A DNA stretch of 64,000 nt from a phage. The position numbers and the translations under genes are program-made. The notes below the pieces were generated by a model. That model searched no databases. It was not told where the DNA came from and was given only the letters and a program-made list of their open reading frames with translations. The stretch lies in the sequence record PZ386980.1; one strand, 5' to 3'. Below, one piece after another: positions 6,092-64,000 of this stretch. Numbering within the stretch: position 1 is the stretch's first letter; every line of letters starts with the position of its first letter.

Positions 6092-6355
6092 TCATAGTTC
6101 AATCTCAGCGATTTTCATTTCATTACTATTAATAGCCTCTTTAAGACTATCTGAAAGAATTACATTCCAGTGGTCATTCATATGACCATTAACTAAGCGT
6201 GTAATTTCTTCAGGAGTTGAAAAATAAGGCTGATCAGACTCCCAATGCGATAATCCTAAGCGAGTATAAATCATGCCTTCATCATCACTAGAATATTCAA
6301 CTGACACAAACTCATCAGTTATTTTATGCTTAGCATAATAAAATTTAAATTTCAT
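6092..6355 (-). CDS. hypothetical protein (87 aa from MKFKFYY)
   Basis: track ORF trimmed; the first 33 track codons are read-through of the upstream promoter cassette. Confidence 0.5.
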   Translation of the reverse strand: MKFKFYYAKHKITDEFVSVEYSSDDEGMIYTRLGLSHWESDQPYFSTPEEITRLVNGHMNDHWNVILSDSLKEAINSNEMKIAEIEL

Positions 6356-6364
6356 TTTACTCTC

Positions 6365-6440
6365 CAAATCCGTATCAGTTGATAGTTGTATAGTACCACG
6401 GTCCTTGTGGTATGTAAACTGTTTTGTGAAATTTTTTAAA
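6365..6440 (-). promoter_or_regulatory. early promoter cassette (PeSL-type)
   Basis: minus strand GTTTACATACCACAAGGACCGTGGTACTATACAACTATCAACTGATACGG. Confidence 0.5.
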
Positions 6441-33429: not shown

Positions 33430-33681
33430 TTAAAACTTAACAAATAACTTTAAAGCATCTTCAATTTTAATTCCTTTTCTTACACCCATAACAGAAATTG
33501 GCTGTGACTGAAATTTTCCTTTACCATTATAAATTTCTAATCCAGTCACCATTCCATTTTGTTCTATAATACCGTAAGTGTTGCCTTCATTTTCAAATTC
33601 TTTAACTTTAAAGAGTTTATTAGCTTTTTCTGCGTTAATAACTTTTAAATTTTGAATAAAATTAGTTTGAATATTTTTCAT
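33430..33681 (-). CDS. hypothetical protein (83 aa)
   Basis: ORF track; ATG follows conserved cassette leader with GGAGG. Confidence 0.5.
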   Translation of the reverse strand: MKNIQTNFIQNLKVINAEKANKLFKVKEFENEGNTYGIIEQNGMVTGLEIYNGKGKFQSQPISVMGVRKGIKIEDALKLFVKF

Positions 33682-33689
33682 TTTCGGTT

Positions 33690-33745
33690 CCTCCGTAGTT
33701 GATAGTTGTATAGTACCATGGAAGAACAGTCTCGTAAACAGTTTT
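33690..33745 (-). promoter_or_regulatory. early promoter cassette (PeSL-type)
   Basis: minus strand GTTTACGAGACTGTTCTTCCATGGTACTATACAACTATCAACTACGGAGGAA. Confidence 0.5.
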
Positions 33746-42623: not shown

Positions 42624-42944
42624 TCACAATGAAGAAAATTCTTTAACTAAAGCCTGTAATGAAGCCTCTATTGGATATCCATTCTTAACTAACATTTTCC
42701 TAAACATTACATGTTTAGGACGATTATATGATATCCACAATTCATACAATTTATCTTTATTATCCCAATGATAGCCTTTTCGTCGAGATGCTATATGAGC
42801 TTTTCTAATCTCCGGATTTTTCCAACTAGCAGCTACTGAATTTGATATAGCTATTTTATATTCAGGTTTTGATAAAGCAGCACGAACAGCCTTTTGGTGT
42901 TTAATTTTATTTTCTTCGTTATTAAACCATTCCCTTGAAGCCAT
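42624..42944 (-). CDS. NUMOD-like DNA-binding repeat module, out of frame with the upstream HNH ORF
   Basis: 106 aa with repeated K/R-rich motifs (KHQKAVRAALSKPEYK, RKAHIASRRKG); overlaps 42851-43477 by 94 nt in another frame. Confidence 0.4.
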   Translation of the reverse strand: MASREWFNNEENKIKHQKAVRAALSKPEYKIAISNSVAASWKNPEIRKAHIASRRKGYHWDNKDKLYELWISYNRPKHVMFRKMLVKNGYPIEASLQALVKEFSSL

Positions 42945-43477
42945 TGAAATTTTTGTTTTGTTTTAAAATTATTTAATCTTTCTTTATTATCTTTCCTATT
43001 TTTTGCTACTGAAAAATATTTTAATGCCCTTTCTCTAGCAGCATTTCTATTTTGCGGATTTGAATAATACTGTTGAAGCCTTTTTGATATTGTGTCACTT
43101 ACATCTTGTTTTATAAAACTATATTCAGCAGCTATTAAATCAACTTCGGCTAAAGATAAATTTTTATATGTTTTTCCTGACATCATTCTATTTAAAGCAT
43201 TTAGCATTTTTCCATTTTTACCTTTTGCTAATAAGAAGTGTGCTTTAAAATGATTAAAATGACTTAAATTAACTAAATTCCATGTAGATTTTAAATATTC
43301 AGGAAATATTGATTTAGGAAGCACGTGGTGTGCTTCCGTTTTACCTGGAGTTTTAACAGTTGAATTCACAGAAATAAAATTAATGTAAGACTTGGCGTCT
43401 TCTTCACTCAACGCTAATTTTTCAACTAATTCCTTTATTAAAAATTCATCATTAATGTCAAGTTTAAAATTCTTCAC
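42851..43477 (-). CDS. HNH homing endonuclease, catalytic part (208 aa)
   Basis: HNH motif EAHHVLPKSIF...NLVNLSHFNHFKAHFLL; track start is GTG. Confidence 0.6.
   Translation of the reverse strand: MKNFKLDINDEFLIKELVEKLALSEEDAKSYINFISVNSTVKTPGKTEAHHVLPKSIFPEYLKSTWNLVNLSHFNHFKAHFLLAKGKNGKMLNALNRMMSGKTYKNLSLAEVDLIAAEYSFIKQDVSDTISKRLQQYYSNPQNRNAARERALKYFSVAKNRKDNKERLNNFKTKQKFQWLQGNGLITKKIKLNTKRLFVLLYQNLNIK
43443..43477. repeat. 35-bp direct repeat, copy 1 (encodes the KNFKLDINDEF start of the HNH gene)
   Basis: aattcatcattaatgtcaagtttaaaattcttcac; 29/35 identical to 43646-43680. Confidence 0.6.
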
Positions 43478-60115: not shown

Positions 60116-60642
60116 TATGCGAGTACCGTCTTTAACCGTTCTTCAAACTTCCGAAGAGTATTCTGGCGTTCAGCTCTTTGCTTTTTGTAAGTTTCAATAC
60201 GCTCTGAAATGAGATTGTATCGTTCATTTACTGTTTCTTTCATAAAATCAGGAATTTCACGAGAAGCTTTAATCTCGTCAAATTTATCAATAACAGCTTG
60301 CTCTTCAGCAATTAAGTTATCATACATCAAAATATCTTTCTTGATGAACTCAATATCTTCTTGAGTTACACGAGATAACTTAGATGCTTTATCCTTTTTG
60401 TACTGTTCGTTAGTATCACGAGACCAGTGTAATGTACGATTTTTATTCGTATTCTTGTAAATTTCTACAATACCAATCTCATCGATAATAACGATCCAAT
60501 TCCAACGGGATTTGTAAATTTGTCCTCCATCAACAGTGATTTCACCACCGATTGAGACATCATTAAAGAACTTGCTTTGAGCTTCAGATTTAAATTTACC
60601 ATCATTGTAGTTTACCAAGTTGAAAATATCTTTAGCATTCAT
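60115..60642 (-). CDS. coiled-coil-tailed protein 5 (175 aa)
   Basis: coiled-coil C-terminus; ATG after the conserved cassette leader. Confidence 0.55.
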   Translation of the reverse strand: MNAKDIFNLVNYNDGKFKSEAQSKFFNDVSIGGEITVDGGQIYKSRWNWIVIIDEIGIVEIYKNTNKNRTLHWSRDTNEQYKKDKASKLSRVTQEDIEFIKKDILMYDNLIAEEQAVIDKFDEIKASREIPDFMKETVNERYNLISERIETYKKQRAERQNTLRKFEERLKTVLA

Positions 60643-60644
60643 TT

Positions 60645-60702
60645 TCTGTTCCTCCGTAGTTGATAGTTGTATAGTATCACAGAGGAACAGTCTTGTAAAC
60701 CA
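60645..60702 (-). promoter_or_regulatory. early promoter cassette (PeSL-type)
   Basis: GTTTAC -35, GATACTATAC -10, 9-bp inverted repeat CTGTTCCTC/GAGGAACAG enclosing the -10. Confidence 0.5.
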
Positions 60703-61017
60703 CTAAAAGAAACTTCTTTCACAATTTTTTCCACTGAACCACGCGCTCACTGCTTTCTTAGTCTCAGGAGCAGTGTTATCCATAAACCATTCAAAGGCAG
60801 CCTTTTTATGATTCTGGAGGGCTTCTCGGGCTTTAATCTGCTCACGGTCTATTAACACTAACATATGAGCCTTTCTTGTCACCAGGGGCTTCTTATGATT
60901 TTTTGAATATTCCCAATCATTTGTCCATCGCATTGTTGTTGCGAACTGAAATACTGCTTCTTTAATTTTAGTTTCATAAATTTCACGAGCCTTTGAGTAT
61001 AACATCATTACCTCCAT
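60703..61017 (-). CDS. hypothetical protein (104 aa)
   Basis: ORF track. Confidence 0.5.
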   Translation of the reverse strand: MEVMMLYSKAREIYETKIKEAVFQFATTMRWTNDWEYSKNHKKPLVTRKAHMLVLIDREQIKAREALQNHKKAAFEWFMDNTAPETKKAVSAWFSGKNCERSFF

Positions 61018-61087
61018 TTACCAGTTTAATTCTAGTCATCTTTTTGATGGCAGTCCATATAATCTATTTCTGAACTGCCTTTTTGTC

Positions 61088-61807
61088 TTAGGATTCTTCT
61101 AAATGTCTTTTCTGAAAAGTTGATACCATACTACGATACGGTTCATTTGGATATCCGTGTTTTATAGCTTCCTTTGTAAATTTTCTCCATCCATATTTAG
61201 TTTCTTTCCAAAGCTCGAATAATTCATCTTCATATTGCCATATAGTTAAATGAGAACGCTTTGCAGCTTTAATTCCATTAATATGCTTTTCTTTTACTAC
61301 AGGATTGCTTAGTTTCTTTTTAATAATATTACTAACTTTTCTAACAAAAACTGGGTCCTTATATCGTTGCGAAGTTTTTATTGAAGTGTTTAATTTAGCT
61401 TCCGGCGTGGATGTGACCTCTTTCATCTTTTTCTTCATATGCTGTATATGATTAGGATTTTTCCATAAATTTATAGAATGCTTTTTGCATTTTATCCTAG
61501 TTTCATCTGCAACCTTTCCTCCTTCACCCCCGTATGACAGGTTAACACAGTTTTTTCCATATTTCAATTTACCTGCCATGATATATAATATTTCAGCTTG
61601 TACCATTTTATCATAATTATCAAAAACTTCTAAAACCGTTTTTGATAATATGTGGTCATTTGACACTTTTACACGTTCTATATAATTTCCACTACCAACA
61701 TACGAATCATTGATGTTATTAGTTATATGTCGACCATAATAGTATTTCTTAATACCTGTCTTTAAATTTAATATTTCAGTTTTATAGATAGTAAAATATT
61801 TTTTCAT
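61088..61807 (-). CDS. GIY-YIG homing endonuclease (Seg-like, 239 aa)
   Basis: N-terminal FTIYKTEILNLKTGIKKYYYGRH (GIY-x11-YIG-like); K-rich repeats in the C-terminal half. Confidence 0.55.
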   Translation of the reverse strand: MKKYFTIYKTEILNLKTGIKKYYYGRHITNNINDSYVGSGNYIERVKVSNDHILSKTVLEVFDNYDKMVQAEILYIMAGKLKYGKNCVNLSYGGEGGKVADETRIKCKKHSINLWKNPNHIQHMKKKMKEVTSTPEAKLNTSIKTSQRYKDPVFVRKVSNIIKKKLSNPVVKEKHINGIKAAKRSHLTIWQYEDELFELWKETKYGWRKFTKEAIKHGYPNEPYRSMVSTFQKRHLEES

Positions 61808-62772
61808 TTTAATAATACCGTTTCAGCGATTTCTTCCCAACCGTTTTTGTCGGTCATAATAAAGTCAGCAAGATAAAGTGCAGTACGCAGTGAAACATTA
61901 CGTAAACGATTAACATTGACTTTCATCCATGATAATGCTTTATAAGTTTCTTCATCAGAAAGACCGCGCTTTTGCATCATGTCGGTTGAAAGAATAACAT
62001 CTTCAACCCTGACCATAATTTCTTCATTAGTGTGAACACCCAAATCCAAATAAACTGAGCGGGACACTAATGCTTGTAAATGTGGAGCAAGTTTAGTACC
62101 ACGGTCTAATTCGCGGTCAATGTCAACGTTTGTGATAAAAACAATCGTTCCTTTAAATTCAAACTCACGCTCAATGCCTTTTTCTTCTAAGTAAGAAGAT
62201 GCGGTGCTCCAGCAGACTTTACGGGTCTCTCCAGTGTCCAGAGCAGCTTTCAGAAGATTAAGAATGTCCATATCAGAGAAAACATCCACATCATCAATCA
62301 AAAGGACAGAATTCTCTTCACGATTATTCCAAAGCTGTTCATAAAGACCAATACCAGAGATTTTACCATTAATGCTTTTATACTCAATGTATCCAATATC
62401 ATTTGCTTTATTTAAAGCTTTATCTAAAGAATACGTTTTACCAATACCTGCTGCTCCCGAGATAATTAATGAACGAATGTTTCCGTTAATAATACCATTC
62501 GTCATCATTCCCATAACATTAAATCTTTTATTAATGCGGGTTTTCATATCTTCATACGATTCTTTAACTTCTTCAACTTTTACACCATCATATGAAATGT
62601 CTGATTTGTAAACCCAAACACCGCGACGCTTACCGTCAATTTCAACAAAAACTTTACCATCTCCTTGTGCATCTACCGGAGCATTATCTGGGAACCATTC
62701 GCCTAAGAGCTCAAAAGTTCCAGAGATTTCTTTACCGAAGTAGATACCCTTATTGATAGTTACAGTTTTCAT
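61804..62772 (-). CDS. AAA+/P-loop ATPase (322 aa from MKTVTINKG)
   Basis: Walker A GAAGIGKT, Walker B VLLIDDVD; first 22 track codons are promoter read-through. Confidence 0.65.
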   Translation of the reverse strand: MKTVTINKGIYFGKEISGTFELLGEWFPDNAPVDAQGDGKVFVEIDGKRRGVWVYKSDISYDGVKVEEVKESYEDMKTRINKRFNVMGMMTNGIINGNIRSLIISGAAGIGKTYSLDKALNKANDIGYIEYKSINGKISGIGLYEQLWNNREENSVLLIDDVDVFSDMDILNLLKAALDTGETRKVCWSTASSYLEEKGIEREFEFKGTIVFITNVDIDRELDRGTKLAPHLQALVSRSVYLDLGVHTNEEIMVRVEDVILSTDMMQKRGLSDEETYKALSWMKVNVNRLRNVSLRTALYLADFIMTDKNGWEEIAETVLLK

Positions 62773-62774
62773 TT

Positions 62775-62840
62775 TATTCTCCAAATCTGTATCAGTTGAT
62801 AGTTGTATAGTACCATAAAGCTTTATGCTTGTAAACAACT
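62775..62840 (-). promoter_or_regulatory. early promoter cassette (PeSL-type)
   Basis: minus strand GTTTACAAGCATAAAGCTTTATGGTACTATACAACTATCAACTGATACAG. Confidence 0.5.
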
Positions 62841-62857
62841 TTGTGAAAAATTTTTGA

Positions 62858-62885
62858 AATAAAAAAGGGAGCCCGAAGGCTCCCT
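62858..62885 (-). terminator. rho-independent terminator downstream of the 337-aa gene
   Basis: GGGAGCCUUCGGGCUCCC hairpin plus U-run; same terminator-UP-promoter arrangement as 2740-2834. Confidence 0.5.
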
Positions 62886-62886
62886 A

Positions 62887-63900
62887 TCATTTATAATAAC
62901 TTCGATGGTTTTCGAGATACACCTTCTCAAGGAAGTCATCCCAGAAACCCATGTCTACTTTTTGCTGCATACCGTTCTTAGAAGCTTCAGTAGATGCTGC
63001 TTCTACTTGATCGACCACATCTTCCAAAAACTCTTGAACTGTTTTAAATGGATGTTTACCCAACTTCACGTCGAGAATAAATGGAGCATCTTGGAGTGGA
63101 TAAATCAAGTCGCCAGTTTTGTAAATTTCCAATAGTTGAAGTCCACCACGACAAGCATGACTTAGTGCTTTCCAATCAATGCCTTCATTGGCTTCGGCCT
63201 TACGAGCACGTTCACCATATTCAGCATCTAATTTGTTCAGTGACTGCTTAAGCTCAATAAGAGAAAGCGTTGTCTGATATTTACGACCCAACACAGTGTA
63301 GAACGTTTGCGGGCCTGTTTTCTCGTGATTATGGAACACCCATTCACAGAATTCGTTTTCTGGAAGACGATGCTTAATATCTTCAATTTTAGTGCGACGT
63401 TGTCCTTGTGTTCCATCTTCTCGGTAGACATTCCGTTGATCAGGAATTTGATTAACTACTTTCAATACATCACGTAATGCAGCCAAACGAGAACCCTTGA
63501 CACCGTATTTAGAAGCTTGCTTGCGAACATATCCTAAATAGGATTTCATGTTAGTCGTATAAAAACGAGAACGGTTGTCTTGAATAAACTTCCACACATC
63601 AGGCAAATCTGATTTAACTACTAGCTCAGGTGGAGTGTGAAGCATATCCAATGCTACGGTTTCACCATCTGCTGCTAATTTAAAGAAATATTTAAGACTG
63701 TATAGTTCATGGTCAATATCATCTTTAGTGTTTTTAGATGATGTGTTGTTAGTGTTTTTACTCATGTGCTCTTTGACATTTCCGATAAGAATATCACGAG
63801 CAGGAGGAACAAAGATTTCTTTAAAATCTACATCAGATTCTGGGGTAGAAGTTCCATAAAGATGACTACCAAAATAGCTTTTCATTACTGTTTTCATCAT
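62887..63900 (-). CDS. predicted nucleotidyltransferase-fold protein (337 aa)
   Basis: N-terminal FGSHLYGTSTPESDVDF (GS ... DxD, Pol-beta-type NTase signature). Confidence 0.5.
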   Translation of the reverse strand: MMKTVMKSYFGSHLYGTSTPESDVDFKEIFVPPARDILIGNVKEHMSKNTNNTSSKNTKDDIDHELYSLKYFFKLAADGETVALDMLHTPPELVVKSDLPDVWKFIQDNRSRFYTTNMKSYLGYVRKQASKYGVKGSRLAALRDVLKVVNQIPDQRNVYREDGTQGQRRTKIEDIKHRLPENEFCEWVFHNHEKTGPQTFYTVLGRKYQTTLSLIELKQSLNKLDAEYGERARKAEANEGIDWKALSHACRGGLQLLEIYKTGDLIYPLQDAPFILDVKLGKHPFKTVQEFLEDVVDQVEAASTEASKNGMQQKVDMGFWDDFLEKVYLENHRSYYK

Positions 63901-64000
63901 TCAGCCTTATATTCAATAACAGGACATACTTTAGCTTTACGAGCTTTTAAAAATTCAACGATAATCGATTTCTTGGGTTGAATAGGAGGTAAACCTTTAT
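63901..64000 (-). CDS. 3' end of a gene that starts beyond the window
   Basis: in-frame ...KGLPPIQPKKSIIVEFLKARKAKVCPVIEYKAE*; stop overlaps the start of the downstream gene. Confidence 0.5.

Follow-up and report, generated by a model that had tools for sequence, protein, structure and literature searches.

The 64,000-nucleotide stretch of phage DNA analysed here (sequence record PZ386980.1), which will be referred to as the window, carries at 61088–61807 on the minus strand an open reading frame (ORF) with an ATG start, coding for 239 amino acids plus stop, which very probably represents a free-standing Seg-type GIY-YIG homing endonuclease gene and is located between nrdC.10 and nrdC.9. All genes across 60600–62900 are encoded on the minus strand, and this part of the window has the same sequence as in phages RB51 and RB68 (100% identity) and is 98–99% identical to T6, RB32, RB14, AR1 and others. 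The ORF corresponds to RB51ORF100 and RB32ORF093c and is carried by RB32, RB51, RB14 and T6. Copies with at least 95% identity in 67 phage records and 1419 homologues detected by HMMER at E ≤ 1e-3 clearly demonstrate that it is a real gene rather than a chance ORF.

The neighbouring gene nrdC.10 (61804–62772, minus strand) encodes a P-loop/AAA-like ATPase of 322 amino acids with a Walker-A-containing P-loop domain, as judged from sub-threshold Pfam matches to AAA_14, AAA_22 and AAA and from the RB51 annotation. Its start was corrected from the TTG at 62838 of the longest ORF to the ATG at 62772, which is accompanied by a GGAG Shine-Dalgarno sequence. On the other side, nrdC.9 (60703–61005, minus strand), encoding a DUF7203 protein, is the downstream neighbour in Tequatroviruses. 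An earlier note on this DNA had described the 239-aa ORF with a GIY-YIG-like N-terminus and a 4-nt overlap between its start and the stop of the ATPase gene. Both are indeed present: the N-terminus reads MKKYFTIYKTEILNLKTGIKKYYYG, and the plus strand reads TCAT at 61804–61807, so that the ATG of the ORF (61807–61805) and the TGA of nrdC.10 (61806–61804), read on the minus strand, overlap as ATGA. The note had, however, placed the ORF upstream of the AAA+ ATPase gene; since the genes are on the minus strand, it lies downstream (3′) of it.

The gene as such is already known, its seg-like annotation going back to the RB32 record DQ904452, and RB51ORF100 carries the RefSeq label ‘DNA endonuclease; similar to seg putative site-specific intron-like DNA endonuclease’. 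Two seg-like genes were counted for RB51 in Table 5 of Petrov et al. 2010 (PMC2993671); the ORF is presumably one of them, because it is the sole full-length Seg match in the window. Literature searches for the name of the ORF, and for nrdC.10 together with homing endonucleases, retrieved no characterisation or experimental work, the only mention being this per-genome seg-like count (PMC2993671), and a review of T4 mobile elements contains no discussion of the ORF (PMC2988022). In sequence records the gene is labelled ‘segE’ in RB68 and AR1 and ‘hypothetical’ or ‘thioredoxin-adjacent’ in many others, the nrdC.x genes are widely labelled ‘thioredoxin’, and mobD.1 appears in RefSeq as ‘molybdopterin-guanine dinucleotide biosynthesis protein MobD’. 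The labels ‘segE’, ‘thioredoxin’ and MobD are name-based transfers without homology support.

The encoded protein is composed of three parts. The catalytic GIY-YIG domain (aa 1–98; 61514–61807, minus strand) contains the two name-giving motifs as TIY (residues 6–8) and YYG (residues 23–25), followed by H27, Y36-G38-S39-G40, E72 and N89. A lysine-rich linker/DNA-binding region (aa 99–190; 61238–61513, minus strand) is built of four or five degenerate helical repeats, each 17 residues long with the pattern (N/T/D)P-x4-K-x5-K-x4, which resemble NUMOD3. The C-terminal part (aa 191–239; 61091–61237, minus strand) is predicted to form a three-helix, helix-turn-helix-like DNA-binding domain shared with T4 SegA and SegF. 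Lysine accounts for 13.3% of the N-terminal 98 residues, 17.7% of the C-terminal half and 20.7% of residues 99–190. When the protein was scored against itself with BLOSUM, offsets 17 (z = 2.5) and 34 (z = 3.0) stood out as the top two among offsets 10–39, which makes the 17-residue period weakly significant, and helices modelled by AlphaFold at 101–116, 118–132, 135–150 and 152–166 agree with this spacing. NUMOD3 itself gave no match in the ORF (34 of 104 homologues match). Thus, the modular C-terminal DNA-binding region of Seg-type enzymes, repeats followed by a terminal three-helix domain, is present, an assignment that draws among other things on the C-terminal alignment with SegA and SegF.

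A direct scan of the 239-aa ORF returned no Pfam family at E ≤ 1 and no NCBIfam family. Two controls bear on this result: SegA–E and SegH match PF01541 and/or PF19835, and T4 SegF and SegG, both experimentally characterised GIY-YIG enzymes, likewise hit no Pfam family, as does the homologue from Klebsiella phage Merci. Since the proven enzymes SegF and SegG also score nothing, the Pfam miss is a false negative due to insensitivity of the profiles. It is likely caused by the hairpin between the two motifs, which exceeds that of most Seg proteins by 4 residues; the hairpin columns 12–13 and 18–19 are gaps in 73–91 of 104 aligned homologues. The ORF matches PHROG 314 ‘homing endonuclease’ with an E value of 1.8e-30, and when aligned alone by hhalign against an alignment of I-TevI, SegA–E and SegH, it gave a probability of 97.3% (E 2.2e-11) over residues 2–104. 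Of the 104 aligned homologues, 33 match PF19835, 16 PF01541 and 34 NUMOD3. By tblastn, SegB of T4 (1e-5) and SegH of T6 (2e-5) were detected, together with a SegA-like gene (1e-13) and, in Aeromonas phage 25, a ‘GIY-YIG homing endonuclease’ (5e-11). A word-indexed protein search found two relatives only, and exhaustive HMMER searching was needed to obtain the 1419 homologues mentioned above. As just two of these reach E ≤ 1e-30, the ORF represents a divergent branch.

The residues Y8, G25, Y36, G38, E72 and N89 are invariant in the 104 homologues and are all kept in the ORF, as are the near-invariant positions Y23 (103/104), H27 (101/104), T29, D34, S39, G40, G93 and G94. Y8, Y23, E72 and N89 align with Tyr6, Tyr17, Glu75 and Asn90 of I-TevI. 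An equivalent of the catalytic Arg27 of I-TevI was sought and none was identifiable, the Seg proteins aligning with a 9-residue deletion there; the column of R45 of the ORF contains R in 38 and K in 16 of the homologues (R/K 54/104). A single-sequence AlphaFold model was of no use (pLDDT 42), and a model based on the alignment was taken instead (mean pLDDT 95.7). It places strand-strand-helix-strand-helix in residues 4–86 and displays the three-stranded antiparallel sheet flanked by helices of the GIY-YIG fold. Foldseek against BFVD yielded 92 matches at E ≤ 1e-3; the names of nearly all of them refer to homing, Seg or GIY-YIG endonucleases, and the best T4 match is the gp69/SegF entry P04523 (5.6e-10). 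Nothing was found by Foldseek against PDB or by phmmer of the ORF against PDB sequences, and I-TevI scores no better than E 0.11 against the profile of the 104 homologues.

The missing Pfam and NCBIfam matches, the lack of a Foldseek match in PDB and the Arg27 counterpart that could not be assigned might be explained by a DNA-binding protein that is not a nuclease and resembles GIY-YIG enzymes at its N-terminus only. This is scarcely conceivable in view of the hhalign probability, the invariant Tyr, Tyr-Gly, Glu and Asn residues and the fact that the proven nucleases SegF and SegG miss Pfam too. By sequence and fold, the ORF very probably belongs to the T4 Seg family of free-standing homing endonucleases; from this membership, together with the population patterns described below, we infer nuclease activity, a target and homing. 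The earlier note had proposed a GIY-YIG Seg-like homing endonuclease with a lysine-rich, repeat-like C-terminal half, to be given up if no GIY-YIG profile was hit. Read literally, the Pfam and NCBIfam scans gave that outcome, yet the profiles miss SegF and SegG as well, and the proposal is upheld by PHROG 314, by hhalign and by the Pfam matches of the homologues; the repeat-like half was recovered as well, with its 17.7% lysine and weak 17-residue periodicity.

Identity to the named T4 seg genes ranges from 22 to 34%, mostly in the catalytic domain, and judged by these comparisons the ORF is the orthologue of none of them. Nearest in overall architecture are SegF (gene 56/soc region) and SegA (uvsX/beta-gt region) of T4, which show the same succession of GIY-YIG domain, basic helical repeats and C-terminal helix-turn-helix and align with the ORF over residues 7–200 and 21–232, respectively. 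SegF also shares the long GIY-YIG hairpin and the absence of a Pfam match, and all three genes are inserted between conserved genes and sporadic among relatives. They differ in that identity amounts to just 22–26% and the locus and presumably the target are others. The catalytic domains of T4 SegB, T4 SegE and T6/U5 SegH are 27–34% identical to that of the ORF, with the common signature Y..(K)T.....Y.G.H.T...DxYxGSG....E....N..GG.GG, whereas their C-terminal halves cannot be aligned with it beyond NUMOD3-like stretches. I-TevI, the td intron endonuclease and structural prototype of GIY-YIG homing enzymes, resembles the ORF in having a nuclease domain tethered to a separate DNA-binding domain, at a sequence identity of about 15–18%. 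Unlike the ORF, it is intron-encoded, contains a zinc finger and has a helix with the catalytic Arg27, in place of which the Seg proteins, including the ORF, have a shorter HxT..DxYxGSG loop. Two identifications with T4 genes were rejected. T4 segE, after which the gene is named in RB68 and AR1, lies between inh and uvsW (112057–112674) and is 34% identical over residues 11–117 only; T4 mobD follows nrdC.11, is of the HNH type and is missing here.

Other endonuclease loci also deviate from T4. A second endonuclease insertion relative to T4 is found at 42624–43477 (minus strand), between gene 46 and 46.1/46.2/47, and comprises two overlapping ORFs, one of 208 aa with an HNH motif (EAHHVLPKS...NLVNLSHFNHFKAH) and one of 106 aa in which the family profile recognises, with E 3.4e-9, the DNA-binding module from the C-terminus of the Seg-like ORF. 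This locus has the appearance of a Mob-type HNH gene that a frameshift has divided, and it shows, beside the Seg-like ORF, the same DNA-binding module on two different nuclease domains. The HNH gene mobD, which follows nrdC.11 in T4, is missing from the RB51-type genome (window 63900–64000 and beyond; L001, 6298–7283; L006, 429–1208), where two small ORFs, RB32ORF096c and RB32ORF097c, take its place. Because mobD is missing and the Seg-like gene is present, two neighbouring junctions are occupied by different endonuclease genes in T4 and in this phage.

The earlier note had further suspected an extra insertion relative to T4, to be dropped if T4 had the gene at the same position, and had called for a comparison of this junction in related genomes. 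The comparison confirmed the insertion: T4, with nrdC.1 to nrdC.11, lacks the gene, and its nrdC.9 and nrdC.10 are separated by no more than a 94-bp spacer. The window is homologous to T4 (~97%) as far as 61091 and again from 61825. When 10 carriers were aligned with 10 empty-site genomes, the sequence was shared until ...GAAATCGCTGA and then again from TAAGACAAAAAGG; the whole inserted block comprises 731 bp (61092–61822), where the empty-site allele has about 35 bp (T4: 38 bp), and homology resumes with the ORF's stop codon as its first triplet. With 29.4%, the G+C content of the insert is below the 36.5–38.5% of the flanking genes and falls into the lowest 2.4% of 720-bp windows. Just 3′ of the endonuclease stop, an inverted repeat GGCAGT-N19-ACTGCC is present at 61049–61079; it is common to carriers and empty-site genomes and therefore belongs to the nrdC.10–nrdC.9 spacer, not to the insert.

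Across 503 Tequatrovirus phage records, the site at the nrdC.10 locus is empty and uninterrupted in 435 and occupied by the gene in about 67 (counted at a protein identity of at least 95%). The gene is thus missing from ~87% of relatives, and T2 and T4 also lack it. A search for further carriers in IMG/VR identified only one among 37 nrdC.10 loci. The ORF thereby displays the stand-alone position between conserved genes and the sporadic distribution of Seg-type elements, and it marks a presence/absence polymorphism, which will appear as a breakpoint when T-even genomes are compared.

Nucleotide diversity of the gene among the 10 carriers is 0.005, compared to 0.009–0.039 in their flanks, in a sample of 10 versus 10 genomes partly picked for broken copies. 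Flank diversity within carriers is similar to that within non-carriers and to that between both groups, and both flank haplotypes (AACGGTTGGG..ATC and AACCATTGGG..ATT), located at most 25 bp from the junction, occur in carriers as well as in non-carriers. Fixed differences between carriers and empty-site genomes are confined to 61810–61822 and 61092–61107; the remaining flanks differ by 1–4% with no fixed difference between the groups. Flank SNPs tied to the presence of the gene, possible marks of a distant cleavage site, were searched for in the 10 versus 10 genomes, and none was found outside the replaced segment.

One of the two fixed blocks falls into nrdC.10 itself. In the alignment of 10 carriers and 10 empty-site genomes, the last six codons and the stop of nrdC.10 (61804–61822, minus strand) are recoded, a change brought in with the endonuclease cassette. 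Every carrier reads GAA ACG GTA TTA TTA AAA TGA (ETVLLK*), whereas the empty-site Tequatroviruses read GAG GTT ACT CTT CTG AAA TAA (EVTLLK*); in the letters of the junction segment, the empty-site form is GCTGAGGTTACTCTTCTGAAATAA and the recoded form GAAACGGTATTATTAAAATGA. The two termini are separated by 11 fixed nucleotide differences, and still four of the six residues are the same, the others amounting to a V/T swap. Across genera, nearly all nrdC.10 genes end with ...EIAEVT(L/M)LK*. Since the terminus is recoded in all carriers and the flanks show no other fixed differences, the cassette includes a replacement end for nrdC.10. This is the arrangement expected if the site of the enzyme overlaps those codons, the carrier being immune and NrdC.10 remaining intact. 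T4 has an unusual terminus of its own: its NrdC.10 ends with ...EEIATGYSSEINS and departs from the EVTLLK of the homologues examined (L002, 12336–12373, compared to window 61804–61830), because of one extra G (ACGGGTTAC versus ACGGTTAC in the closest empty-site contig), which is either a T4-specific frameshift or a sequencing error.

A sister lineage of the gene was found in Klebsiella phage Merci (gp266) and Serratia phage 92A1, whose homologues are 46% and 45% identical to the ORF over the full length; the Merci type is represented in nine Klebsiella records (Merci and eight others). Both homologues lie directly 3′ of nrdC.10 orthologues (74% and 60% aa identity, respectively), and nrdC.9 is not next to them. 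Since these copies follow nrdC.10 in the absence of nrdC.9, the endonuclease is tied to the end of nrdC.10 and not to the intergenic region. The Merci sequence is 97% identical to the empty-site contig L018 until nt 965 of the 981-nt nrdC.10 and diverges thereafter, so that the terminus changes from EVTMLK* in L018 to EVTQLRG*; this junction is 6 nt away from that of the window lineage. A similar ending, EVTQLR*, is found in the more distant nrdC.10 loci L037 and L040 (60–64% identity to NrdC.10 of the window); the resemblance may be the trace of a cross-genus donor. Thus, the sister lineage has the long hairpin, the position directly after nrdC.10 and the recoded nrdC.10 terminus in common with the ORF, but differs in that its junction lies 6 nt further 3′, an 8-nt spacer replaces the ATGA overlap, the downstream neighbour is another one and the 92A1 copy contains a stop codon. 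In these data the mobile unit appears as a cassette larger than the ORF, with two lineages of 46% identity in at least three host genera that have kept the insertion point in nrdC.10 to within 6 nt, each with recoded codons preserving the C-terminus of the ATPase, a view to which we would give a little less than even credence.

Concerning expression, neither a Shine-Dalgarno sequence nor a promoter of its own was found for the endonuclease gene, and searches in its vicinity revealed no exact T4 late promoter (TATAAATA), no MotA-type middle promoter nearer to the ORF and no start-masking RNA hairpin of the kind described for mobE and I-TevI (z = -0.5). A sigma-70-like match across the junction (61840–61812) was rejected, as with 9/12 it is no better than shuffles and transcription would start at the ATG. 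Upstream of nrdC.10, a terminator-like hairpin (62885–62866) is followed by a promoter-like TTTACA-17-TACTAT (62835–62807; together 62807–62885, minus strand), the sole candidate promoter able to serve the endonuclease gene. This promoter-like block is repeated 5′ of nrdC.10 (62807–62835, minus strand) and of nrdC.8 (60671–60699, minus strand), and similar short intergenic blocks (6350–6431 and 33677–33740) show an 87–89% match to T4 intergenic sequence; they are probably repeated early-promoter regions. As the simplest reading, the endonuclease is probably expressed by coupled, low-level translation: the ATGA overlap would couple its start to nrdC.10 on the early transcript of the latter.

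The full-length ORF is intact in 57 of the best 60 records, and several broken copies exist: AR1 has a 1-nt deletion at nt 458, RB3 and RB10 a 7-nt insertion at about nt 277, G157lw a 1-nt deletion at nt 252, and Serratia phage 92A1 an in-frame stop at about codon 21. Some of these lesions could be sequencing errors, and inactivation of this kind is the life-cycle decay typical of homing endonuclease genes. Eleven substitutions in the gene, five synonymous and six non-synonymous, give a dN/dS of 0.36, a rough value from such a number. The independent frameshifts in AR1, RB3/RB10 and G157lw, the nonsense codon in 92A1, the lack of an own promoter or ribosome-binding site and the six non-synonymous changes out of 11 might also be attributed to a decaying relic, a former homing endonuclease that no longer cuts or homes and is kept since deletion is slow. 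Such a relic is unlikely, as the invariant residues of the catalytic domain are all intact, the full-length ORF persists in 57 of the best 60 records, and a gene diversity of 0.005, lower than in the flanks and combined with several flank haplotypes, argues for recent spread rather than long passive residence.

The most likely behaviour of the enzyme is homing into the 3′ end of nrdC.10, of which the low diversity of the gene on mixed flank haplotypes and the recoded segment are indirect population signals. During co-infection, the enzyme would attach to the last nrdC.10 codons of the empty-site allele, or close to them, and cut this allele; repair of the break by recombination with the carrier genome would then transfer a copy of the 731-bp cassette. 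The carrier would be protected because the cassette exchanges the last six nrdC.10 codons for a recoded version that keeps the C-terminus of the protein. The characterised Seg enzymes SegF and SegG can cleave hundreds of bp from their insertion sites (PMC2993671), and for this reason the target may lie elsewhere than in the replaced segment; we consider the chance that it is the nrdC.10 3′ end to be even or slightly better.

Selfish homing would not be the sole or main role if the nuclease were kept for the benefit of the phage, either by marker exclusion of T-even rivals or by breaks that drive the amplification of accessory or anti-defence genes. SegB of T6 drives amplification of anti-defence loci including gp49.1–nrdC.1 (PMC13096335), which lie in the same genome arm as the ORF, the ORF is located within the hypervariable 40–75 kb accessory region (PMC2993671), and it is coupled by ATGA to a conserved ATPase gene, all of which would suit such a role. 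Nothing in the sequence, however, sets a benefit apart from plain homing, ~87% of the relatives do without the gene, and its repeated inactivation is unexpected for a beneficial gene, so that a role of this kind appears very improbable.

The recoded terminus and the conserved insertion point are the modest additions of this analysis. The understanding of Seg-type elements is left unchanged, and the ORF is an ordinary selfish gene of about one in eight T4-like coliphages. Its practical value lies mainly in annotation, since curated profiles overlook this member of the Seg family. From the precisely mapped junctions, together with the recoded end of nrdC.10, a hypothesis follows as to where an uncharacterised Seg enzyme may recognise its DNA. 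Should immunity be determined by the recoded codons, the window lineage and its sister lineage would form a clean, directly testable natural pair for the question of how GIY-YIG homing enzymes retain a target over long divergence and at the same time protect their own genome.
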